A DNA stretch of 64,000 nucleotides from Deltaproteobacteria bacterium (GCA_040218735.1 JAVJQW010000043.1:96001-160000); one strand, 5' to 3'. Numbered from the stretch's first letter, positions 27,826-38,714 are shown. Notes: generated by a model from the sequence alone, not told the origin. A program made the numbers and translations.

Positions 27826-29061
27826 TTGTTCGTTCAGGAGATGCAGTGGCGCGGTCTCGTCAAACAGCTCAGTCACGACGGGCTCGACGAGGTGATGGCG
27901 AAGGAGAAGATGCGGGTCTACAGCGGCTTCGATCCGACCGCGTCTTCCATGCACGTCGGCAACCTCATGCCGACGATGGCGCTGCGGCGCGCCCAGCTCG
28001 CCGGGCACCACCCGATCGTGCTCGTCGGCGGCGCCACGGGGATGATCGGCGACCCCAGCGGCAAGTCGTCGGAGCGCAACCTCCTGGACATGGAGACGCT
28101 CGAACGGAACGTGGAGGGGCTCTCGAAGCAGTTCTCGCGCTTCATCGACTTCGACGACGCGACCCTCGTGAACAACTTCGACTGGTTTGAGGGGATCGGC
28201 TACCTCGAGTTCCTCCGCGAGGTCGGCAAACACTTCTCCGTCAACGCGATGATCGCACGCGACTCCGTGCGCACGCGCCTCGAGGAACGCGAGCACGGGA
28301 TCTCGTACACCGAGTTCTCGTACATGCTGATCCAGGCGTACGACTTCTGGCACCTCTACAAGGAGCACGGGTGCAAGCTGCAGCTCGGCGGGAGCGAGCA
28401 GTGGGGCAACATCGCCTCCGGCATCGACATCATTCGTCGACTCGGCGGGGGGGAAGCCTACGGCATGACGTTGCCACTCCTCCTCGACGCGTCCGGAAAG
28501 AAATTCGGAAAGAGCGAAGAGGGGGCCGTCTGGCTCGACCCCGATCGCACGTCGCCCTACGACTTCTACCAGTACTTCCTGCGCACCGATGACCGCGACG
28601 TCATCCGCGTGCTGCGCTACCTCACGACGCTGGAGCGCGAGAAGATCGACGAGCTCGAAGAGCGCCACGCCGCCGCGCCCGAAAAACGCGAGGCCGCGCG
28701 CGAGCTCGCGCAGTGGATGACCGCGCTCGTCCACGGTGAGGACGAGGCGAAGCGCGCCGAGGCGAGCGCCAAGGCGCTGTTCGATCCCAACGCAAAGGGT
28801 GACCTCCCGCCGGGGACCCCGACCTACGCCTGCGAGGCGAGCAAGCTCGAAGCGGGGTGGCCGCTAGTCGACGCCATCGTCGAGAGCGGCCTCCTCCCGT
28901 CCAAGGGCAAGGCGCGCAAGGCGATCGAGCAGGGCGGGATCTACGTCAACGGCGAGCGCCAGACCGATACGGCGCGTACGCTCACGACCGCCGACGCCGA
29001 AGGCGGCGACGTCCGCCTCCGCCACGGCAAGAAGAACCACATGGTCCTGCAGCCGTCCTGA
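27826..29061 (+). CDS. tyrS: Tyrosine--tRNA ligase
   Basis: YSGFDPTASSMHVGN (HIGH), QLGGSEQWGNI, KFGKS (KMSKS), C-terminal S4 domain. Confidence 0.97.
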   Translation: MFVQEMQWRGLVKQLSHDGLDEVMAKEKMRVYSGFDPTASSMHVGNLMPTMALRRAQLAGHHPIVLVGGATGMIGDPSGKSSERNLLDMETLERNVEGLSKQFSRFIDFDDATLVNNFDWFEGIGYLEFLREVGKHFSVNAMIARDSVRTRLEEREHGISYTEFSYMLIQAYDFWHLYKEHGCKLQLGGSEQWGNIASGIDIIRRLGGGEAYGMTLPLLLDASGKKFGKSEEGAVWLDPDRTSPYDFYQYFLRTDDRDVIRVLRYLTTLEREKIDELEERHAAAPEKREAARELAQWMTALVHGEDEAKRAEASAKALFDPNAKGDLPPGTPTYACEASKLEAGWPLVDAIVESGLLPSKGKARKAIEQGGIYVNGERQTDTARTLTTADAEGGDVRLRHGKKNHMVLQPS

Positions 29062-29076
29062 GCGAGATCGCCCGGC

Positions 29077-30234
29077 TCAGCTACGTCGGCGCGGCCCGAG
29101 GTGCGGGTGCGCGTGCGCGAACTCCTCGAGGGTCGATGTATCGAGGCCGGTGCCGCGCGTCCTGAATCGTCGCAGGCGCGGGAGGCGCGCGACCGCCCCG
29201 AGTGTCGCCTCCGAGATCGGCGTCTCGTCGATGAACAACCGTTCGAGTGTCTCGGCGGCCGACGTGAGCAGGGCGATGAATCGCGCCTCGTCGATCTCGG
29301 CGAACGCCACGGTGAGGTCTCGAACGCCGGTGCAGCGCTCCACGCCCCGCGGGACGACCGGGGCGCTCAGCGAAACACGACCGAGCCCCGTGAGGTCGAT
29401 CGGACCCGAAGTCTCGAGGTCGTGCGCGGACGCGAGCTCGAGATCCGCGAGGCGCGGCATCGCGGCCCGAAAGCCGCGGACGTCGTCGAGCGCGTTCGGC
29501 AGGTCGCGGAGCACGAGCCATTCGACGTTCGGGAGCGCACGCCTCGGCGTGAGCACGAACGAAGGAATGTCGCCGCACGTCACCCAGACGAAGCTCAGTC
29601 GCGGTACATCGGCCAGCGCATCCAGCCGACGAACTTGCGTGTGGCTGAGTGTCAGGTGCGTGAGGTTCTCGAAGCCGAGCCCGTCGAGCTGGTCCTCAGC
29701 GAAGTCCGAGCCCTCGAGTCGAAGCGTCTGCACCTTCGAAGCGTGGCGTCGAATGCGCTCCAGCTCCTCGAGGGAGGCGCACGCCTTCCTGAGGTGCAGG
29801 CTGAATCGAACGCCCTCCTCGTACTCGGGGGGCAGCGCCGGTCCGAGGACGTGAAACGGCGGGCGGCCCTCCTGCTGGTGATAGAGGCGCGCGTCGTCGT
29901 CCGTGAAGCGCCCGCAGACGGTGAGCTCGACGATCGTGTGCGCGTCCGTCGCGTCCTCGACGGACACGTTGATCCACTCCGGGATGCGCCCGTCGCGATA
30001 GAGCGCAGCGAACGCGGTCTCGGCGTCGACGTCGGCGAGCTCGGCGCGCCGCTCGGGCGCGGAGTCCTCCGGATAGAGCCTTACGGTCTCGTCGGCGTGC
30101 CCGTCGTAGGAGGCGTTCAGCTCGACGCGGAAGCGAACGGCGTCGGGGAGCGGTTCTTCGATGTACTCGCGCGCGAAGTCACGCGCGCGCGTGTAGGCGG
30201 CGACGAACCGGCGTCGGAACTCGTCGCGCTCCAC
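29077..30234 (-). CDS. Hypothetical protein with C-terminal leucine-rich repeats
   Basis: LxxLxL repeats (VQTLRLEG, LTHLTLSHT, LADLELAS, LERLFIDETPI, LPRLRRF) after an N-terminal domain of about 140 aa. Confidence 0.7.
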   Translation of the reverse strand: MERDEFRRRFVAAYTRARDFAREYIEEPLPDAVRFRVELNASYDGHADETVRLYPEDSAPERRAELADVDAETAFAALYRDGRIPEWINVSVEDATDAHTIVELTVCGRFTDDDARLYHQQEGRPPFHVLGPALPPEYEEGVRFSLHLRKACASLEELERIRRHASKVQTLRLEGSDFAEDQLDGLGFENLTHLTLSHTQVRRLDALADVPRLSFVWVTCGDIPSFVLTPRRALPNVEWLVLRDLPNALDDVRGFRAAMPRLADLELASAHDLETSGPIDLTGLGRVSLSAPVVPRGVERCTGVRDLTVAFAEIDEARFIALLTSAAETLERLFIDETPISEATLGAVARLPRLRRFRTRGTGLDTSTLEEFAHAHPHLGPRRRS

Positions 30235-30283
30235 GGCGCTACCGTATCACGCGCTCGATCCGTCGCGGCGAGCACGGACGCGA

Positions 30284-33200
30284 TCAGCGGAGTCGGTTGA
30301 GCACCACCGCGTGGTCCCCGCCGATCTCCACCCGAGCGCCCGTCGGCGCGAGGTCGCCTTCCTCGTCCACCGTGAACGTCGCGGTCTCGGTCGCCGAAAT
30401 CCCGAAGATGACGGAGCCCGTCTCGTCCACCGCGATGTCCGTCAGGCCGCCCGTCGGCAGGCCCTGCACGCGGGTGTCGTTCGGATCCTGATCGATCGCC
30501 GTCAGGCTGCCGTCCGCTTCGATGCGGTACACGAACAGCGCGCCGGGCGTCGTCTCGCCGCGCGGCGAGCGTGAGTCCGCGGAGACGAACAACCACGATC
30601 CCGACAGCGTCATCGTCACCGGGTTCGCGCCCGTGTCCATCGCGTCCCCGAGCGGGCTCAGCGTCCCGAAGTCCGGGTCCGCCGAGAACGTGCGGACGTG
30701 CCCGTCGTTCGTCAGCACGTAGACCCGATCGTTCGCCGCGTCGATCGCTACGTCGATCACGTTGTCCAACGAAGGCACGGTCGAGGATGCTCCGAGGGGC
30801 GCGCCCGGCTGGCCGCGGTCGATCGACAGCACCGACAGCTCCCGGTCCTCGGTGATCGCGTAACCCCAGCGCCCGTCGTCGTGTACGAAGATCCGGGTGA
30901 GGTGCCGGTTGCTCGCATTGCGGCGCCGCATCTCGAGACGCCCCGGCGCCGCGTCGCGGTTCAGATGGAAGCTGTACGTCCCGCCGTACTCGTTGTCGCC
31001 GTTGTGATCGACGCACCAGACGTACTCCCCGAGCGGGTCCACCACCACGGAGCGGTCATCCTTCTGTCCGCGCCCCGACTCCTCCGGCTGCACGAACGGG
31101 TTCACGGTGAGCGCGTTGGTCTCGGCGTCGATGTCGAACACCTGGACGAACTGCGAACCGTTGCGCCCCGTCGAGACCATAAGATGCCGTTGGTCCGGCG
31201 TCATCGCGAGCTCTTGGCGCTCACCGGTCCCCGGCATGTCCATCACCGAGCCCATCGTGAGCGCCCCGTCCGCCCCGACCTCGATCGCCCGCAGCGCGAA
31301 CCCGTCCGTCACGTACACGGCGACCGGCACGCTCGTCAGCAGCGGCGAGCACTCGCCGTTCTCCTCCGCGCTCCGCGCGTCGAGCGGCGACGCTTCACAC
31401 CGGTCAGAGGTCCCGTCGTCGTCGGTGTCCGGGTTGTTCGGGTCCGTCCCCATCGCACGCTCCATCGCGTCGTCGAGGCCGTCCTCGTCCGCGTCGTCGC
31501 GGCGCGGGTTCGATATCACGCGGTAGGCGACGTTCGCCTCCGTACCCTCGTCGTCGTAGGCGATCGAAACGGTCCACCCGTTCTTCACCTCGACGAAGTC
31601 GGAGAGCCCGTCGCCGTCCGAGTCGACCGCGTCGTCCGAGGTCCCGTACAACCCTTCTTCGCGCTCCATCAGCCCGTCACCATCCGCGTCGCGCACGTAG
31701 ACCAAACGCACCTCGTCGCCCGCGTACAGACGCACGTCCTCGAACGGTAGGTCGGCCCGCGCCTCCGACGGTCGCTTCACGTAGATGATCCAGAACGCCT
31801 GCGGGTCCCCCGCGACGCCCATCGCCGGCTCGCCGCGGTCGTCGGAGCGTTCGTTCGCGTACGAGCCGAGCGTGCGCTCGATGGCGTGCAGCTCCTCGAC
31901 CATCACGGTCTCGCCTTCCTCGGTGCGGCGCTCCACGGCGCGTGTCTCGTACGGGACGCCGAGCACGTCCTTCAGGAGCGTCCCCATCCGAATCCCCGCG
32001 AACTCGCCGTCGTCGGTGCGGTCGACGTTCGTCGCGACCTGGAAACGCTCCACCGGCTCGCGTCCCGTGTCGATCACGAGCGTCGCGGTGCGGTTGTACG
32101 TCTCTTCGACGAGGAAGTCGTAGCTGACGCCGTCGCGATCCTCGAGGTCGAACTCACCCGGGCTGAAGAACAACGCCTCGGGCCGCGCCAAGAACTCCTT
32201 GATGAGGTCCGCGTTCACGTCTTCGTTCGACATCGAGATCAACACCGAGCTCCCCGCTCCGCTCGGCGCCAGCGTGAAGACGCGGTTGCCGTTCTCGTCG
32301 AGCTGCCCGCCGTCGTCGACCGTCAGCGTCCCCACCGTGCGGAACGTCCCGCCCCCGAGCGGTGCGTCTGGGCTCGGCGACGCCGCCCACTGCATCATGG
32401 TGATCGACGGGTTCACGAGCTCCACCGCCGAGATCCCCGTGTTCACGAACCGGAACGCCATCCGCACCTCACCGCGCGACGTCTTCTCTTCGTTGATCTG
32501 CGTGTCGCGTCGGTACTCCGACGAGGTCCGCGTCGCCGACTGCGATGACGCCGTGGTGAGCGTCGTCGACGTGGTGTTCACCGTCTCCGGCGTCGCGTCC
32601 GCACACAGCTCCGTGTCCGAGAGGCCCGTCGCCTTCAGCACGGAGCCGGCCGCCTCACCGACCAACCCGACCGTCTCCTTCAGCGCGTTCGGATTGTCCT
32701 TGTCGAACTTCACCTCGCCGCCGCTCTTCGCGGAGTCACACGCCGCGGACCGACCGAGCTCGAGCGCCTTGCCGCCGAAGAACTTGAGCGCGCCCGCCTT
32801 GCTGAACTCGAGGTCGTCGAAGAACCCTTCGCCGCCGGAGGAGGCCGCGGTCGTGACCGCCGTGCTCTCCATGTCGCTCCGCTCGGTCGAGCTGGAGTTC
32901 GTCGTCGAGTAGACGCTCCCGTATTCGACCTCGCTCCGATCGCCGGTCAGGTATTCGACGCGAAGTCGGATGTCGATGTCGCCAGCCGACACCATGTCGA
33001 GCTGCGGGATCTCGGCGACGCGCGGGTCGCGGTTCGTCACGTCGCGCTCCTCGCGGTCGTCGAGCCCGTCCCCGTCCGTGTCCGCGAGCGTCGGCGACGT
33101 CCCCGCCGCGACCTCCGCGCCGTCGAACAGCGCCGCGACGGGGAGTGTGGTGTCGTCCTCGTCGAGCGCGTCACCGTCCGAGTCGACGCTCGAGAGGTTC

Positions 33201-33544
33201 GACCGGTAGCGGTACTTCTCCTCGAAGTCATCGAGCTGGTCACCGTCGGTGTCCGCGAGCGTCGGGTCACTGCGCTCCGCAAGCTCGATGTCGTCGGTGA
33301 GCCCGTCGCCGTCGGTGTCGGCGAGGGTCGGGTCCGACACGACCTTGCGCCGTGTGACGAACTCGGCGCCCGCCGCGAGGCCGTAGCCGAGCTCGTCCAC
33401 GACGACCTCCCAGCCGGCGAGCTCGATCGCATCGGTGAGCCCGTCGCCGTCGGTGTCGACGGTGGCCGGGTCGTTCGCGCCGCCGCCGCAGGCGAGCGCG
33501 AGCGCAAGCAACAAGAAGGTCGGAGTGGTTCGGGTGATCTTCAT
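30284..33544 (-). CDS. Lipoprotein with Ca-binding DxDxDG repeats, binary-toxin-B/protective-antigen-like core and C-terminal beta-propeller (1086 aa)
   Basis: Lipobox LALAC; DTDGDGLTDAIELAGWEV; RDPRVAEIP; RFVNTG...V.P; RTATLVIDTG..VERFQVA; lactonase-like blades at the C-terminus. Confidence 0.75.
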   Translation of the reverse strand: MKITRTTPTFLLLALALACGGGANDPATVDTDGDGLTDAIELAGWEVVVDELGYGLAAGAEFVTRRKVVSDPTLADTDGDGLTDDIELAERSDPTLADTDGDQLDDFEEKYRYRSNLSSVDSDGDALDEDDTTLPVAALFDGAEVAAGTSPTLADTDGDGLDDREERDVTNRDPRVAEIPQLDMVSAGDIDIRLRVEYLTGDRSEVEYGSVYSTTNSSSTERSDMESTAVTTAASSGGEGFFDDLEFSKAGALKFFGGKALELGRSAACDSAKSGGEVKFDKDNPNALKETVGLVGEAAGSVLKATGLSDTELCADATPETVNTTSTTLTTASSQSATRTSSEYRRDTQINEEKTSRGEVRMAFRFVNTGISAVELVNPSITMMQWAASPSPDAPLGGGTFRTVGTLTVDDGGQLDENGNRVFTLAPSGAGSSVLISMSNEDVNADLIKEFLARPEALFFSPGEFDLEDRDGVSYDFLVEETYNRTATLVIDTGREPVERFQVATNVDRTDDGEFAGIRMGTLLKDVLGVPYETRAVERRTEEGETVMVEELHAIERTLGSYANERSDDRGEPAMGVAGDPQAFWIIYVKRPSEARADLPFEDVRLYAGDEVRLVYVRDADGDGLMEREEGLYGTSDDAVDSDGDGLSDFVEVKNGWTVSIAYDDEGTEANVAYRVISNPRRDDADEDGLDDAMERAMGTDPNNPDTDDDGTSDRCEASPLDARSAEENGECSPLLTSVPVAVYVTDGFALRAIEVGADGALTMGSVMDMPGTGERQELAMTPDQRHLMVSTGRNGSQFVQVFDIDAETNALTVNPFVQPEESGRGQKDDRSVVVDPLGEYVWCVDHNGDNEYGGTYSFHLNRDAAPGRLEMRRRNASNRHLTRIFVHDDGRWGYAITEDRELSVLSIDRGQPGAPLGASSTVPSLDNVIDVAIDAANDRVYVLTNDGHVRTFSADPDFGTLSPLGDAMDTGANPVTMTLSGSWLFVSADSRSPRGETTPGALFVYRIEADGSLTAIDQDPNDTRVQGLPTGGLTDIAVDETGSVIFGISATETATFTVDEEGDLAPTGARVEIGGDHAVVLNRLR

Positions 33545-33555
33545 CCTCGAACCGG

Positions 33556-33581
33556 GTGCGAACGCAGCCCGTTTCGTGGCA
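33556..33581 (-). promoter_or_regulatory. Putative ECF promoter TGCCACGAAAC-N11-GCAC upstream of the PA-like gene
   Basis: Same boxes and spacing as 35405..35430; an A-tract lies just upstream. Confidence 0.65.
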
Positions 33582-33612
33582 CGCCGTCGGCGATTTTTTT
33601 CGCGGTCTGTGG

Positions 33613-34647
33613 TCAGGCGGCGCGGGCGCGCAGGACCGCGGCCTCGCGGAGCACCAGGTCCGTGCGTTTGTAGTCGGTCACGAGGTCGACGAAGAGGCGG
33701 TCGGAGCCTGCATCCCGCGGCCGCATCCCGGTGGGGAGCAGCTCCGCGACGAGCAGCTTGTCCTCCCAGCGGCGCAGGAAGTCGTCGGCCGCGTAGACCT
33801 CGCCGCTCTGTCCGTCGACGATGAACGTCTGGTGGATCGATGCGTCTGCGCCGACGCTGCGGTGCGGCGTCACCACGTTGAGCAGGTGGCACGTCTTCGT
33901 GCCGTCCGCGTCGATGCCTTCGAAGGACAACACCGCACGTTCGCCCGGTTGGAGCTCCGCGATACGGTCGCGCAGCGACGCCGACACGCCGCTCCGCTCC
34001 GCGACGGGGGAAAGCCACCGATGATCGAAGTCGTCCGCGAACCCGGTCGGGACGCTCGCCCACATATCGGACTCCTTGGACTGGAAGAGCTCCACGGCAT
34101 CGCGCGGATGCCCGAGCCGATTCGCCACCTCCCAGATGGAGTAGTCCCGGGCGTTGTGCCGGGCCATGACGCGGATCGCGGGGAGCTCGGCCACGGCGCG
34201 CATCGCCGCCTCGACCTCCGTCGTGCCTCGGGAGAAGTCGGCGCTCCGCAGCGCTTCCACCGCCGCGGTGATCGTCGGGCGCCCTGCGTCGATGAGCGCT
34301 TCGAACGTGACCCGTTCGTCGCGGAGCGCGATCAGGTCCGGGTTCGTTTCGTCGGCGTCGATCAACTTCGCGAGCACCTCGGGGTCCGCGAGCTCGGCGG
34401 CGACGCCCGCGTCGTCATCCGCGTACGCGTCGAGCCGTTCGCCGCGCGCCACCGCCGCCCCGAGCCCTGCGAGGCGCTGGTCGACCGCGATCGAGCACTC
34501 ACTGCAGTTGTGCGTGGAGCGCTCCGGGTTCACGAACAACTGATTGGAGCCGAGCGACGAATAGACGAGCGCGAGCTGCTCTTCGAGTGTGCGTTCGTCG
34601 TCGAACCGCCGTGCGACGAGCTGAGGGATCTGCCCCGGGCTCCGCAT
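33613..34647 (-). CDS. Papain-fold toxin-like protein (Tox-PL/glutamine deamidase-like)
   Basis: NCSECSIAVDQRLAG, CHLLNVV and FIVDGQSG motifs give a Cys-His-Asp triad; no signal peptide. Confidence 0.7.
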   Translation of the reverse strand: MRSPGQIPQLVARRFDDERTLEEQLALVYSSLGSNQLFVNPERSTHNCSECSIAVDQRLAGLGAAVARGERLDAYADDDAGVAAELADPEVLAKLIDADETNPDLIALRDERVTFEALIDAGRPTITAAVEALRSADFSRGTTEVEAAMRAVAELPAIRVMARHNARDYSIWEVANRLGHPRDAVELFQSKESDMWASVPTGFADDFDHRWLSPVAERSGVSASLRDRIAELQPGERAVLSFEGIDADGTKTCHLLNVVTPHRSVGADASIHQTFIVDGQSGEVYAADDFLRRWEDKLLVAELLPTGMRPRDAGSDRLFVDLVTDYKRTDLVLREAAVLRARAA

Positions 34648-34734
34648 GTTTGGCGGGCTGCGTTGGCCGTAGTCGGTTCGGTGCTCGGGGCCTCCCGCGA
34701 GGCGCGTCAGGTCGTGGGGCGGGGCGGGTCTGTC

Positions 34735-35388
34735 TCACCGAACTCGGAGCGGGATCCTCGCAACGACCTCCCATTCGGTCGCGAGCTCCAGCTCCAGCAA
34801 CCCCGGTTGCAGCACCCCCGCGTCGACCTCGACGATCAGCGGCGCCTTCTCGGGGCGTTTCACCGATGCGGTCCACACCGCGCGGTCCCCGGCGCGCAGG
34901 GTCGCGACGAACGACGTCGCGCGCACCGTCGACTCGAACGTGACGACGAACCGCACCGGGCCGCCGCCGTCGATCACCTTCGGAGCGGCGTCGGCGCGGT
35001 AGGTGTTCGGGGCGAGGTTCACCATGGTCGGCTCCTTCGGGAGCACCACGAGCGCGACCACCGCCGCGGCCGCCGCGAGCCCGAGCACGCCGAGCCACTG
35101 CCACTTCGCTCGCGGGGCCTCGCGGGGACGCGCGTCGGCGCGACCCTCCAACGCCTCCGCGAAACCGAGCTCGTCCGCCCACGCGCGCTCGTCCTCGATC
35201 TTCTTCGCGACGATGGCCCGTTCGTCCGCCGGGAGCGTCCCGTCGCGGTAGGCCTGCACGAGCTGAGACCGCAGCGCACGCACGGCGTCTTGGGTGTCGT
35301 CGGCCAGGAAGGCGGCCTCCTCGACCGCATCGTGATCCTCGGGGGACAGCCGCCCGAGGACATAGGCGCGCAGTTGTTCGGGGTTCAT
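34735..35388 (-). CDS. Anti-sigma factor (single TM plus extracytoplasmic domain)
   Basis: LRAYVLGRLSPED..AVEE...LVQAY..G.L...ER N-terminus typical of CHAT-linked anti-sigmas; ATGA overlap with the sigma gene. Confidence 0.78.
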   Translation of the reverse strand: MNPEQLRAYVLGRLSPEDHDAVEEAAFLADDTQDAVRALRSQLVQAYRDGTLPADERAIVAKKIEDERAWADELGFAEALEGRADARPREAPRAKWQWLGVLGLAAAAAVVALVVLPKEPTMVNLAPNTYRADAAPKVIDGGGPVRFVVTFESTVRATSFVATLRAGDRAVWTASVKRPEKAPLIVEVDAGVLQPGLLELELATEWEVVARIPLRVR

Positions 35389-35999
35389 GGCGTCTCACCC
35401 TCCTGTGCGTCGCCGCCTTGTTTCGTGGCAGATGTTTCGTCACGAAGTCGTGATTCGATGCACCGCTTCAGGCGAACCCTGAGACGCGCCGCGCGACTCC
35501 TCAGGTTCACCTCGGTGAGGCCGAGGTCCTCCGCGAGCGCGCGACGGTGTCGTGTCTTCTCCCGCCCGACGAGCCCCCGGTGGTATTCGAGGAGCACGCG
35601 CCGTTCGGCGTCGTGCATGCCTTCGAGGCAGCCGTCCATCGCGGCGAGGAGGCGCTCGCGCTCTGCGGCGTCATCGTCCTCGCGCACGGACGGCGTGCCG
35701 AGCGGCTTCGTCCGCTGGTCCTCGCGGCTCGCCTCCAGGGCGACGAACCGCGCGACGCCCAAGACGTAGCGCAGCGGATCGGGGTGCTCGACCTCGAGCC
35801 CCTCTTCCAGTTTTCGCGCGACGCGGTCGAGCGTCTCGTCGGCGAGCGCGGGGGGATCGGCGAGCGCGCGGCACTCGAAGAGCGTGACGAGGCGATCGTG
35901 CACGCGTCGGTACGCGTCGCCGACGGACTCGTCCGGACCGCGCCCCAGCATGTCGGCGAGCGCGCGCCACCGATCCGCGTCCAGCGTGCCCGAGGCCAC
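35385..35999 (-). CDS. ECF sigma factor (CHAT-associated type)
   Basis: Region 2 LADETLDRVARKL...YVLGVAR; region 4 CLEGM...ERRVLLEY...LAEDLGLT..NLR.RA.RLR..LKRC. Confidence 0.85.
   Translation of the reverse strand: MASGTLDADRWRALADMLGRGPDESVGDAYRRVHDRLVTLFECRALADPPALADETLDRVARKLEEGLEVEHPDPLRYVLGVARFVALEASREDQRTKPLGTPSVREDDDAAERERLLAAMDGCLEGMHDAERRVLLEYHRGLVGREKTRHRRALAEDLGLTEVNLRSRAARLRVRLKRCIESRLRDETSATKQGGDAQEGETP
35405..35430 (-). promoter_or_regulatory. Putative ECF promoter TGCCACGAAAC-N11-GCAC at the sigma 3' end, upstream of the anti-sigma
   Basis: Identical boxes and spacing to 33556..33581; followed by a GGAGG RBS. Confidence 0.65.
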
Positions 36000-36050
36000 G
36001 GTGTCGTCTTGTCAGAGGATCGGACCTGCGCACAACATCTGTCCCGAGAG

Positions 36051-38714
36051 ATGCCCGCTGCCCGGTGGATCCTGCTGGCGCTCGCGCTAGCGGGGTGCCG
36101 CGAAGCGAAGCGTGCGCCGCCCGACGCCGGGATCGAGCTCGTACGGACCTGGTCGGGCCGGCTGAGCGGGTCGCAGCCTCTCCACCTGGACGTCCCGAAG
36201 GGCGCCGCCGTGGAGGTGGTGGTCGAGCAGCGCAGCGCCGACGTCGCGCTGGTTTGGGGGGGCGAGCGGATCGACCGTGTCGCGGGGCCCCGAGGCGACG
36301 AGCGGTGGGGCGGGCGCGCCCCGGACGGTGTCTTCGTCCTCGAGAAGGCGCACCCGAGGTTCGACAACGGCGAGGTGCGTCTTCACGTCGTCACTGGGAC
36401 ACGCGCGGAGGCCCGCCTGGAGCTGCACCGTGTGCTGCGCGCCTACGAGACAGGCACCGCGACCGTCGCCGCGTCGTGGCGTGCGCCCGACGACGAGACG
36501 GAAGCGGAGCTCACGCTCGCGGAGGCGGTGTGGCGGTGGGAACGTCGCGAGGTCGAGCTCGCGCAAGCTGGATTGCAGAGCGCGATCGAGCGCGCGAAGT
36601 CACGCCGGGACATCGCCGCACGCGCCCACGCGCGGCTCGGCGACATCGCGTACTTCCTGGGCGATCTGGAGGCGGCCAAGACCCACTTCGACGAAGCGCT
36701 CCGTGGCGCGCTCGCGATCGACGCGGCGACGATCGAGCTCCAGGCCCGCATCGGCGTCGCAGCCGTCCACTCTTCGAAGAACGAACACGACGAAGCGCTC
36801 GCGGTCTTGGAGCACGTCGCCGCGATCGCCGAGGGCGTCGGCGACGACTATTCGCTGGCAATCGCCTACGACCTCACGGGGACGATCTACTTCCGGCTCG
36901 GCGAGTCCCGGCAGGCGCGGAGGTACTACGTCGACAGTCACGACGCGCTCGCGCGTCTGAACGCGACCCAGGCGCAGGGGCGCGTCCTCCACAAACTCGG
37001 GCTGCTCGCGCGGGAGCTCGAAGACGACATCCCCGCTGCGCTCGACGCGTTCGACCGCGCGCTGCCCATGTTGGAGGACGCGAAGAGCGTCGAGGGGGAG
37101 GCGCTGGTACACATCGACCGCGGCCTCACGTGGTTCCTCCGCGGAGAGCGTGACGCCGCGAAGAAGGCGCTCGAACAGGGTTACGCGCTCTCCAAGAGGT
37201 ACCGGATTCAACACCTGCACGGTCGCGCGGCGTGGGGCCTCGGCGTGTTGGCCAACGCCAACGGTGATCACGAGGCTGCGGTCGAGCGCTTCGAGGAGGC
37301 GGTCGAGAAGTTCGACGCCGTGCAGGACGCGATCTACGAGGCGCGCGCCGAGGGCGGGCTCGCGCAAGCCTGGCGCTCGCGGGGCGGCGCGAAGGAGGCG
37401 CTCGAACACGCGCAACGAGCGGTGGCCCTCGCGGAGTCCGTGCGCGCTCGCGTTCGCGCGCCGGACCTGCGGACGAGCGCGTTCGCCGACGTACGTCGGA
37501 CCTACGAGCTCCTGCTGGCGCTGCGAATCGCGACGGGGGCGTCACCGCTCGAGACCCTCCGCGTGAGCGAACGTGCGCGCGCTCGTTCGTTGTTCGAAGC
37601 GCTGCAGCGCGCGCGGGTCGCCGATGTCGCGCTGCGATCCGCGATCCCGGATCTCTCGGTCCCCGATCTCACCCGCCGCCTCGGCCGCCAAGGTGCCCTG
37701 GTCGAGTACTTCCTCGCGGAGCCGCGGAGCTGGGCGTGGGTCGTCGACGCCGACGGTGTTCGTCGCTACGAGCTCGCGGGGCGCGCGAAGATCGAGGCTG
37801 CGGTGCGCGCGTGGCGGGACGCGATCGAGGCGCGAGGCCCGGAGGTCGACGCGCTGGGCGCTCCGTTGTCTGCACTGATCGGCGCACCGCTGGCGAAGGC
37901 GCCTCGGGACCTCTGGATCGTCCCGGACGGCGCGTTGCACTACGCGCCCTGGGCGGCGTTGCCCGACGGTGACGGACGCGCGCTGGTGGAGCAGCACATC
38001 GTACGCCTCGCGCCGAGCGCGGCCTTTGCTTCGCGTCCCGCGAGGCCCATGCCCGAGGCGCCGAGGATCGCCATCGTCGCCGATCCGGTGTTCAGCGCCG
38101 CGGACCCCCGCCTCGAGACCCCCGACCCGGCGGCGGATGTACCCTTCGCGCGCCTCGGGTTCGCGCGAAGTGAAGCCGACGTGATCGCGAGCCGTGCGAA
38201 GGGACGCGCCGATCGATGGCAGGGGGTCGACGCCAACCTCGCGCTCGTCCGCGGAGGCGCGTTCGCGGGGCGGGACATCCTTCACTTCGCGACGCACGCC
38301 GTCGTCTCTCCCACCTCGCCCGAGCGCGCCGCGTTGATCCTGTCGCTGGTCGACGCGGACGGGACGTCACGCGAAGGCGCGCTCACGCTCGCGCATATCT
38401 ACGACCTCCAGCTCGACGCCCGGCTCGTCGTCCTCAGCGCGTGTGAGACCGCGCTCGGTGAGCACGTGCGCGGGGAGGGGCTCCTCGGTCTGGGGCGCGC
38501 GTTTCTGTTCGCGGGGAGTCACTCGGTGGCGTCGAGCCTGTGGCGGGTCGATGACCGCGCGACGTACCAGCTCATGTCGCGGTTCTACGCGGAGCTGCTC
38601 GGGACGCACTCGGACCCGGCTCGGGCCCTGCGCGCGGCGCAACTCGGCCTGCGCGCCGATGAACGGTACACGCACCCTCGTGACTGGGCATCGTTCCTCG
38701 TCGTCGGGCGCTGA
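36051..38714 (+). CDS. TPR-CHAT (caspase-HetF) protease, lipoprotein
   Basis: Lipobox LALAGC; TPR array; SERARARSL; VPDGALHY.PW.AL; ILHFATHA (His) and VVLSACETALG (Cys); HPRDWASF. Confidence 0.93.
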   Translation: MPAARWILLALALAGCREAKRAPPDAGIELVRTWSGRLSGSQPLHLDVPKGAAVEVVVEQRSADVALVWGGERIDRVAGPRGDERWGGRAPDGVFVLEKAHPRFDNGEVRLHVVTGTRAEARLELHRVLRAYETGTATVAASWRAPDDETEAELTLAEAVWRWERREVELAQAGLQSAIERAKSRRDIAARAHARLGDIAYFLGDLEAAKTHFDEALRGALAIDAATIELQARIGVAAVHSSKNEHDEALAVLEHVAAIAEGVGDDYSLAIAYDLTGTIYFRLGESRQARRYYVDSHDALARLNATQAQGRVLHKLGLLARELEDDIPAALDAFDRALPMLEDAKSVEGEALVHIDRGLTWFLRGERDAAKKALEQGYALSKRYRIQHLHGRAAWGLGVLANANGDHEAAVERFEEAVEKFDAVQDAIYEARAEGGLAQAWRSRGGAKEALEHAQRAVALAESVRARVRAPDLRTSAFADVRRTYELLLALRIATGASPLETLRVSERARARSLFEALQRARVADVALRSAIPDLSVPDLTRRLGRQGALVEYFLAEPRSWAWVVDADGVRRYELAGRAKIEAAVRAWRDAIEARGPEVDALGAPLSALIGAPLAKAPRDLWIVPDGALHYAPWAALPDGDGRALVEQHIVRLAPSAAFASRPARPMPEAPRIAIVADPVFSAADPRLETPDPAADVPFARLGFARSEADVIASRAKGRADRWQGVDANLALVRGGAFAGRDILHFATHAVVSPTSPERAALILSLVDADGTSREGALTLAHIYDLQLDARLVVLSACETALGEHVRGEGLLGLGRAFLFAGSHSVASSLWRVDDRATYQLMSRFYAELLGTHSDPARALRAAQLGLRADERYTHPRDWASFLVVGR

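Follow-up and report, generated by a model that had tools for sequence, protein, structure and literature searches.

Does a relative of the anthrax protective antigen (PA) exist as a cell-anchored lipoprotein in a deltaproteobacterium, and what might such a protein do there? The question was raised by an earlier note on a stretch of 64,000 nucleotides from a Deltaproteobacteria bacterium (GCA_040218735.1 JAVJQW010000043.1:96001-160000; the whole stretch is referred to below as the window), in which the gene at positions 30284-33544 of the minus strand had been read as a PA-like protein recast as a lipoprotein with a beta-propeller. The assembly consists of 11.6 Mb in 70 contigs, the genome is myxobacterium-like, and the window contains 67-72% G+C throughout. 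The longest open frame is 30284-34063 (-), and translation from the ATG at 33544 yields a predicted lipoprotein of 1086 amino acids. This start was selected because it fits the homologues and because the part of the frame upstream of it is rich in Arg and Pro and overlaps with the next gene. The N-terminal sequence, MKITRTTPTFLLLALALAC, is that of a signal peptide, and it closes with the lipobox reported in the note: a K/R-containing n-region and a hydrophobic core are followed by LALAC19, which by the general lipobox rule makes C19 the predicted lipid-modified residue. The Cys is conserved at 90% or more in 30 aligned relatives. The signal peptide is followed by TSP3 Ca-binding repeats, a core of approximately 445 amino acids, further TSP3 repeats and a seven-bladed lactonase-type propeller (Table 1). 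Apart from C19, cysteines are found at 269, 314, 716, 732 and 844.

Between the core and PA domains 2-3, as well as the binary-toxin B components, there is genuine remote homology. When an alignment of 73 family members was compared by hhalign with PA and six plasmid-encoded B components, a match of 96.8% probability (P 2.3e-10) was obtained over 245 columns, pairing residues 170-529 with residues 279-561 of the PA precursor, which, mapped on PA, comprise all of Binary_toxB_2 and half of Binary_toxB_3. A local re-run with the match states fixed to the first sequences gave 97.4% (P 8.9e-12) over 183 columns, all of which lie after the insert described below and none in the Ca repeats. Comparison with PA alone gave 84.9% (P 6.4e-6) over 246 columns. 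The P values of the first two comparisons are well beyond chance and bear out the PA-like core proposed in the earlier note. The same majority residue was found in 8 of the 20 aligned columns that are invariant in the PA family, including R365, N368, G370, A487 and A504. N368 is invariant (73/73 members), R365 and G370 are majority residues, and the three stand opposite the invariant R, N and G of the PA family with posterior probabilities of 0.92-0.93. They belong to FRFVNTG, which of all the motifs is shared best with the PA family and which hhalign set opposite IRYVNTG of PA. Two further motif pairs proposed beforehand were also placed opposite each other, RDPRVAEIP with RHPLVAAYP, and RTATLVIDTG...VERFQVA...LKDVLG with TTARIIF...VERRIAA...LKIAFG (posterior probability 0.99 at A487). 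The fifth proposed pair, with VRLYAGDEVRL, fell outside every alignment made.

Searches of the PDB with a 35-member profile returned PA63 chains (E 0.0014-0.0068, with high composition bias) and C2-II (0.0045); the profile also touched stem regions of natterin-like and other beta-pore toxins (E 0.02-0.05). Of two other profiles, one gave only the Ca domain of the PA family and the other non-significant PA matches (E 0.9-3.7). With the single sequence, only a weak propeller match was obtained in the PDB, and a search of the ESM Atlas with the core gave no usable match. An AlphaFold2 (AF2) model of the whole protein was mediocre (pLDDT 73.8, pTM 0.46); Foldseek matched it mostly to propellers, yet also to the Ib pore, the PA channel and CDTb at 2-6e-9. 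The model of residues 20-735 built with the 73-member alignment was confident (pLDDT 85.6, pTM 0.82) except for model residues 198-246 and 285-304 in the hairpin/insert region. All 30 rows listed by Foldseek for this model against the PDB were chains of PA, CDTb, Ib, Vip1Ac or Vip4Da2 (E 2.8e-9 to 4.9e-7, probability 1.00), and the PA-family fold was the sole family among them.

The lipoprotein is one member of a large family. When 1.84 billion cluster representatives were searched exhaustively with phmmer, 608 matched at E<=1e-3, 342 at <=1e-10 and 94 at <=1e-30, the conserved part lying approximately at residues 320-640. With residues 170-640 as query, 36 of the 8000 candidates scored in a word-indexed search proved to be relatives, and a scan of species-representative genomes gave 283. 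Among the latter, named cultured species are represented by Saccharospirillum salsuginis KCTC 22169 and Deinococcus marmoris PAMC 26562. The locus counts given below refer to the best 80 of these 283 relatives, a sample that may be biased since the scan patterns were TSP3-like. By record title, 40 of the 80 loci belong to Planctomycetota, 11 to Myxococcota, 9 to Deinococcota, 6 to Gammaproteobacteria, 3 to Acidobacteriota and 2 to Gemmatimonadota; the other 9 are 7 single records of other groups and 2 without a group. The core was found in 7 of 31 genomes (its own and 30 relatives), and its own genome encodes two full lipoprotein paralogues (47% and 44% identity) plus a distant one. A lipobox-like motif is present in 65 of the 107 members starting with M; among the others, some look like lipoproteins missed by the strict pattern and some have plain signal peptides, so that by their N-terminal sequences most members look like lipoproteins. 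The C-terminal domain varies (among 35 members, Laminin_G_3 in 6, Beta_helix in 6, Chlam_PMP in 6, PKD_4 in 4, Lactonase in 2, dockerin in 2 and TIG in 1). The word "recast" suggests a one-off and needs correction: only the insert (17/73 members) and the propeller are subfamily traits, and across the family, which comprises at least 608 clusters, the lipobox, the TSP3 flanks and a swappable C-terminus are usual.

Both flanks of the core carry Ca-binding blocks, in line with the claim that extra DxDxDG repeats occur on both sides: three motifs (at 30, 76 and 155) precede the core and four follow it (Table 1), and Pfam matched TSP3_bac at 1e-9. The Binary_toxB Ca domain of Pfam (PF03495) aligned with residues 30-85 with E values of 0.24 and 0.16, its 12 bits falling short of the cut-off of 25, and was matched in 8 of 35 family members, at best with 1.4e-5. 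In the PDB profile searches the C2-II chain 2j42 was matched over its Ca domain (E 0.016 and 0.0045). Pairing of a Ca motif with that of PA is ambiguous because the motif is repeated; Pfam gives the position proposed earlier (residues 30-85), though only below its cut-off, and hhalign uses the third repeat instead. The sole named NCBIfam families touching the lipoprotein were CglD and MtsD, whose models match 29 and 15 of 35 members, respectively. CglD (NF033765, an equivalog model) scored 69.5 bits against a cut-off of 400, over residues 617-737 only, with no full-length match above the curated cut-off. Like the window protein, CglD (a gliding adhesin) and MtsD (cell cohesion) of Myxococcus are lipoproteins with many DxDxDG TSP3 repeats. 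CglD is described, in the excerpt of the source used here, as a Ca-dependent adhesin lipoprotein with a TSP-like Ca domain and an integrin-like VWA half (bioRxiv 10.1101/2023.10.19.562135). Membership in CglD or MtsD was rejected: the match is confined to the repeats, the VWA/integrin-like half of CglD has no counterpart in the window lipoprotein, and the PA-like core is untouched by either model.

The C-terminal 350 amino acids resemble propellers of the YbhE/6-phosphogluconolactonase group by Pfam (Lactonase, PF10282, 1.4e-6, 28.2 bits against a cut-off of 21.7), by PDB profile (1ri6, 3fgb and 6nau at ~1e-12) and by fold (Foldseek 5.6e-14, TMt 0.69-0.78). All three agree with the proposal that a lactonase-like propeller replaces domain 4 of PA. 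Unlike in the YbhE group, the propeller is here the C-terminal module of a secreted lipoprotein, in a position that in relatives is occupied by lectin-like, PKD, beta-helix or TIG domains, and a binding role appears as likely as catalysis. It was found in 3 of the 80 loci.

The Ser/Thr-rich stretch at the position of the membrane-insertion hairpin of PA is 162 amino acids long in the window lipoprotein. In 53 of the 73 members, the spacing from VEY to G-x-R-x-x-N-x-G is 87-124 residues and the segment is Cys-free (one member has one Cys); these short forms look, by eye, like amphipathic beta-hairpins with alternating patterns. The comparable cut in six PA-family proteins is 74-89 residues. Long forms of 160-174 residues occur in 17 of the 73, the window lipoprotein included, with two Cys in 16 and three in one; the remaining 3 are truncated in this region, leaving 70 that cover it. 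Both in the PA-alone and in the PA-family alignment hhalign showed residues ~236-318 as inserted at the PA hairpin tip. The two-Cys insert that had been noticed in the Ser/Thr-rich stretch is thus real, 83 amino acids long and with C269 and C314. The long forms share a highly conserved, amphipathic-looking start, GGEGFFDDLEFSK-G-A-(I/L)-K-F-F-G-G-K, beyond which the part between the two Cys is variable, and AF2 predicted helices in the insert, partly with pLDDT 80-90. An intermediate form has the conserved start but no Cys. The full insert was found in 5 of the 80 loci (a Deltaproteobacteria bacterium with MYXO in its isolate name, Gammaproteobacteria, Hahella, Bdellovibrionales and one "bacterium"), and its first 36 residues in two more. 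Right at the tip of the hairpin, two members (P0081 and P0042) have a hydrophobic stretch of 25-30 residues that resembles a transmembrane helix; after the beta-turn and the Cys-stapled insert, this is a third arrangement.

Table 1. Features of the lipoprotein and of its neighbours in the window (residues refer to the 1086-residue lipoprotein)
Feature	Residues	Position	Strand	Basis or remark
Signal peptide and lipobox; predicted lipid-modified Cys C19	1-19	33488..33544	-	Translation, Cys conservation
N-terminal TSP3 Ca-binding block, counterpart of PA domain 1'	27-170	33035..33466	-	TSP3_bac, model pLDDT 96-98
Core, homologue of PA domain 2 plus the first half or more of domain 3	171-615	31700..33034	-	hhalign, Foldseek
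Ser/Thr-rich stretch at the position of the PA membrane-insertion hairpin	198-359	32468..32953	-	Aligned by hhalign; AF2 confidence low
Subfamily insert at the hairpin tip, with C269 and C314, starting GGEGFFDDLEFSK	236-318	32591..32839	-	hhalign insertion
FRFVNTG motif, best shared with the PA family	364-370	32435..32455	-	Posterior probability 0.92-0.93
Second TSP3 Ca-binding block, followed by the Cys pair C716/C732	616-722	31379..31699	-	DxDxDG at 619, 641, 684, 706
Seven-bladed lactonase-type beta-propeller; stop codon 30284-30286	735-1086	30287..31342	-	Pfam, PDB profile, Foldseek
385-aa leucine-rich-repeat protein without signal peptide, 49 nt after the lipoprotein stop		29077..30234	-	LRR_4 E 1.4e-4, below cut-off
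344-aa papain-fold Tox-PL1/Gln_amidase-like protein without signal peptide, 68 nt upstream of the lipoprotein gene		33613..34647	-	Membership uncertain
zf-HC2 anti-sigma-like protein		34735-35388	-	zf-HC2 4.8e-5, above cut-off
204-aa protein, overlapping the zf-HC2 gene by 4 nt		35385-35999	-	No Pfam or PDB match

How does the lipoprotein compare with the known PA-type proteins? Its domain order is collinear with that of PA and the binary-toxin B components (CDTb, Ib, C2-II, BecB, Vip1/Vpb1, Vip4/Vpb4): a Ca domain, an R-x-P-L/V-A-x-x-P linker, domain 2 with a Ser/Thr-rich hairpin and R-x-x-N-x-G, domain 3, and a separate binding domain after the core. Unlike PA, it has a predicted N-terminal lipid anchor and neither a PA14/PA20 pro-domain nor an activation site; the lipobox leads straight into the Ca repeats, and the PA14 model, which matches PA at 8.6e-34, was unmatched here, so the absence of the PA20 prodomain noted earlier was confirmed. 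It further differs by having five Ca repeats against the one domain of PA, plus a second Ca block after the core, by the 83-residue hairpin-tip insert, by a propeller in place of the Ig-like domain 4, by the probable deletion of the phi-clamp loop, and by the lack of a conserved enzymatic partner gene (0/80 loci); in the Clostridium and B. cereus B-component loci used for comparison an ADP-ribosyltransferase gene adjoins the B gene. On plasmid p371 of B. mycoides (L011), the record annotation shows a PA-family B gene preceded by two EndoU-domain genes, with no ADP-ribosyltransferase.

The two groups differ also in their hosts. The lipoprotein family occurs in environmental phyla of Gram-negative type, in contrast to the PA relatives on plasmids: a tblastn search of 72,556 plasmids with PA gave 203 records, all from Bacillus, Clostridium, Clostridioides, Brevibacillus or Enterococcus. 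The excerpt of PMC11359772 used here ascribes PA-type pores to Bacillus and clostridial binary toxins, and in it the term "Gram-negative" occurs 0 times. No description of PA-like lipoproteins, or of PA homologues outside Firmicutes, was found in the open-access papers searched, and one may exist elsewhere. We regard the family as a remote and differently deployed branch of the PA superfamily, large and unnamed, that lies outside the binary-toxin B family as defined by that family's own models.

The genes around the lipoprotein gene were inspected for hints at its function; no RNA evidence was listed for window positions 29000-36000. The upstream 344-residue protein matched Pfam Gln_amidase at E 0.0074, below the cut-off, and in the ESM Atlas resembled Gln_amidase/SpvD/DUF1561 clusters (features 0.91, structure TM 0.40-0.47). 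It contains NC at 47-48, H254 and D278-x-Q280, split by an insertion of approximately 200 residues, which fits the NC-H-DxQ signature described for the Tox-PL1 papain fold in the part of PMC3482391 used here. It was found in only 2 of the 31 genomes, compared with 7 for the core, and has one paralogue, on contig C66, that does not adjoin a family gene. The 204-residue protein may be the sigma factor of its zf-HC2 partner, a very divergent one if so; the label is tentative because neither Pfam nor the PDB gave a match. A paralogous zf-HC2/204-residue pair lies on contig C66. The leucine-rich-repeat (LRR) gene may be co-transcribed with the lipoprotein gene, and an immunity-type role for its product would be speculation. 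None of the four window neighbours (204-residue, zf-HC2, Tox-PL1-like, LRR) occurs in the 80 related loci, nor beside the two full paralogues, whose neighbours are unrelated. One paralogue, at C18:388922-392017 of the same genome (L104:6875-10135), lies between PBP2-like and mreC/mreB-like genes, named by eye from their N-termini only.

Clustering of the open reading frames within 8 kb in the 80 loci revealed a different setting for the family: a Ser/Thr kinase gene in 40 loci and an extracytoplasmic function (ECF) sigma factor gene in 27, all 27 of which also contain the kinase (Pfam matches of one representative per cluster, PF07638 1.9e-60 and Pkinase 4.8e-58). The sigma gene is within 600 bp of the family gene in 13 loci and divergent in 9 of these. 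This suggests that the PA-like lipoprotein is a regular output of an ECF sigma/Ser/Thr kinase pair. The ECF sigma/kinase loci are mostly from Planctomycetota, with the genes often divergent within 200 bp (L022-L091; e.g. L082:6781-7377 and L038:6342-7043). A CarboxypepD_reg protein is encoded downstream of the family gene in 9 of the 80 loci, and no secretion-system genes are conserved near the family genes within this range.

PA domains 2-3 are the oligomerisation and pore-forming module, and PA-type pores are textbook protein-translocating toxin channels. By analogy, the lipoprotein could be tethered to the surface, oligomerise and perforate the membranes of other cells, a proposal for which we see an even balance of chances. 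An outer-membrane or surface lipoprotein would assemble into a ring, like PA63, once concentrated on the surface, and the hairpin region would reach into a membrane as its stem. With the lipid anchor at the N-terminal, cap-top end and the hairpin and binding domain at the other, the stem would be directed outwards from the producing cell, for an action in trans. The target may be a neighbouring or prey cell, reached directly or from outer-membrane vesicles, and would be chosen by the propeller. In the long-form subfamily the beta-turn of the hairpin would be replaced by the 83-residue, probably helical, two-Cys module, serving as a membrane-engaging tip or as a latch; the earlier note had suggested a disulfide-clamped cap that would need cutting or rearrangement before a pore forms. 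The pore itself is expected to be lytic or leak-forming and not a translocase. The proposal is supported by the homology of the core, by the Cys-poor hairpin stretch, which in 53 members is similar in length to that of the PA family, by the weak matches to stem regions of other beta-pore toxins, by the swapping of C-terminal domains among typical surface-binding modules, by the lipobox in 65 of 107 members and by the weapon-like, regulated context, for which the anti-sigma-like gene upstream in the window itself was also counted.

Several observations weigh against this proposal. The Pfam models of PA domains 2 and 3 (Binary_toxB_2, PF17475, and Binary_toxB_3) did not match the lipoprotein even at E up to 10, nor were they among the 25 Pfam families listed for 35 members. 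In the same library PA of pXO1 matched PA14, Binary_toxB, Binary_toxB_2, Binary_toxB_3 and PA_Ig-like (PF17475 at 3.5e-153); with residues 20-735 none of these five models exceeded its cut-off, and PA_Ig-like was also absent at E up to 10. The profile search against the Binary_toxB families that the earlier note had named as a check thus gave nothing above cut-off (the Ca domain at the E values quoted above, domains 2 and 3 not at all), and since the Binary_toxB_2/_3 models give no match the lipoprotein is not a member of the binary-toxin B family by that family's own models. TM-scores to PA-family structures were 0.21-0.39 with root mean square deviations of 8-18 Å in multi-domain alignments. 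As to superposition on PA63, another check named beforehand, Foldseek gave probability 1.00 and E ~3e-9, but with such low TM-scores and high deviations a close superposition is not established. The low TM-scores probably stem from the multi-domain alignments, the extra repeats and the hairpin. Moreover, the 83-residue insert interrupts the hairpin, and a simple beta-barrel cannot easily carry it across the bilayer. In a shuffle test of the beta-amphipathic moment, 4 of 53 short forms and 0 of 17 long forms were significant; as 0 of 6 PA-family controls were significant either (one further control lacked the anchor motif), the test was powerless and says nothing either way. In the loci nearest to the window gene (L012-L017), ECF sigma/kinase genes did not appear among the neighbours. 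Finally, oligomers and pores are expected here by extension from PA-type behaviour, and surface exposure of the lipoprotein is assumed. A two-copy complex prediction of residues 150-630, made with no controls, scored 0.00 and weighs neither way on oligomerisation.

The phi clamp deserves separate mention. In PA-type pores a ring of Phe residues (F455 in CDTb, F454 in Ib) forms the critical constriction for unfolding and passage of the cargo, according to the excerpt of PMC11359772. In mature PA numbering the residue is F427. In the profile-profile alignments the PA loop carrying this Phe fell in a gap of approximately 13 residues with posterior probabilities of ~0.2, which also speaks against a PA-type pore, and the family helix V-N-A-x-x-I-K-x-F-L was paired with the following helix of PA at 0.45-0.8. 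There is no conserved aromatic residue between TLAPG and DVNA in the 73-member alignment. The PA-only alignment disagrees and instead sets F451, a Phe in 58 of the 73 members, opposite the clamp Phe. From these alignments the phi-clamp loop is probably absent in the family, and because it seems to be missing, a plain lytic or leak pore would be favoured over a protein translocase.

Could the lipoprotein, without making any pore, be an adhesin of the surface or a scaffold of the matrix, comparable to the adhesion and cohesion proteins CglD and MtsD? Its PA-like core would then be a rigid beta-rich spacer between the TSP3 blocks and a binding propeller. The named families that touch the protein, with their matches in 29 and 15 of 35 members, and the adhesin described for CglD (bioRxiv 10.1101/2023.10.19.562135, in the excerpt used) point in this direction, as does the insert that breaks the hairpin in the window lipoprotein. 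These matches, however, cover the TSP3 repeats only, far below the CglD cut-off (69.5 bits against 400), and the most conserved columns of the family fall on invariant columns of the PA family's pore module. A Ser/Thr-rich hairpin of PA length is kept in 53 of the 70 members covering the region. Since a spacer would need neither the conserved pore-module columns nor the kept hairpin, we consider a pure adhesin rather unlikely, though a serious contender. The gene order could alternatively reflect a two-component A-B toxin, with the Tox-PL1-like protein as cargo, the PA-like lipoprotein as translocase and the LRR protein possibly as immunity factor. An A-like gene, a B-like gene and a gene for a small cytoplasmic protein do follow each other on the same strand, separated by 68 and 49 nt, the upstream protein has the NC-H-DxQ signature and resembles the Gln_amidase/SpvD clusters, and one alignment places F451 (58/73 Phe) opposite the clamp Phe of PA. 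But the presumed cargo lacks a signal peptide, the Tox-PL1-like and LRR proteins are absent from all 80 loci, the C66 paralogue is not beside a family gene, the two full lipoprotein paralogues have unrelated neighbours, the upstream protein occurs in 2 of 31 genomes against 7 for the core, and the better-supported alignment deletes the phi-clamp loop. We judge an A-B toxin improbable.

Lipoprotein channels such as CsgG and secretins anchored by amphipathic helices provide parallels for a channel acting in cis: the hairpins or helical tip of the oligomer would enter the outer membrane of the producing cell itself and form a conduit there. The lipoprotein-like appearance of most members, the amphipathic-looking helix at the start of the insert and the hydrophobic helix-like stretch at the hairpin tip of P0081 and P0042 would fit such a conduit. 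In a PA-type geometry, however, the N-terminal domain and the stem tip are at opposite ends, and only about 10 residues separate the lipid Cys from the first Ca repeat, so that anchor and stem could hardly share one membrane; the variable lectin-like C-terminal domains better suit target recognition than a housekeeping channel, and conserved secretion-system genes are missing nearby. A cis channel thus appears quite improbable. The least credible explanation is that the resemblance to PA reflects composition and repeats (TSP3/EF-hand-like Ca motifs, Ser/Thr-rich low complexity) and not common descent. It would account for the single-sequence and shallow-profile searches that find the Ca domain only, for the PA matches of the second profile at E 0.9-3.7, for the composition bias of the PA63 match and for the low TM-scores. 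It would not account for the 183-column local hhalign match, which lies outside the Ca repeats and after the insert and still reaches 97.4% (P 8.9e-12) with invariant residues matching, nor for the 30 of 30 listed Foldseek rows from the PA family, and we give it almost no weight.

The membrane-perforating reading can be extended to the whole family, which would then be a phylum-spanning branch of the PA superfamily working as a cell-tethered, contact-dependent perforator with a swappable targeting domain, its ring suspended by the cap from the outer membrane or vesicles of the producer, switched on by ECF sigma/kinase pairs and including a subfamily with a disulfide-stapled helical tip. This extension is tentative, and as a whole we hold it somewhat unlikely. 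The subfamily, with a hybrid of beta-stem and alpha-tip, would comprise the window protein and proteins from metagenome-assembled genomes labelled Myxococcota (as "Deltaproteobacteria"), Hahella, Gammaproteobacteria and Bdellovibrionales, and the device would be one undescribed for any pore-forming protein. The family could show the origin of the PA-type machine, or its work outside pathogenesis. Natural variants without phi clamp or with helical hairpin tips would be material for studies of the prepore-to-pore conversion. The lipoproteins are candidate effectors of contact-dependent killing and a candidate output of many unstudied ECF sigma/kinase pairs of Planctomycetota. Because the core has no Pfam or NCBIfam model (window protein and 35 members scanned), the current annotation of the family genes goes no further than their repeats or their C-terminal domain.

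Two core-matching open reading frames were found in 14 of the 80 loci, one of which looks like a split by frameshift. Tandem pairs of family genes are present in loci labelled Myxococcota, Deinococcales or Planctomycetota (L029, L034, L035, L040, L041, L043, L046, L053, L055, L058, L072 and L082); these pairs could be hetero-oligomer partners or simple duplicates. In the window, divergent from the putative sigma/anti-sigma pair, 35547-38714 (+) encodes a CHAT-domain protein (7.4e-62) with TPR repeats. Its probable start is at 36051, where the Met is followed by a lipobox-like LALAGC, and it may itself be a lipoprotein.

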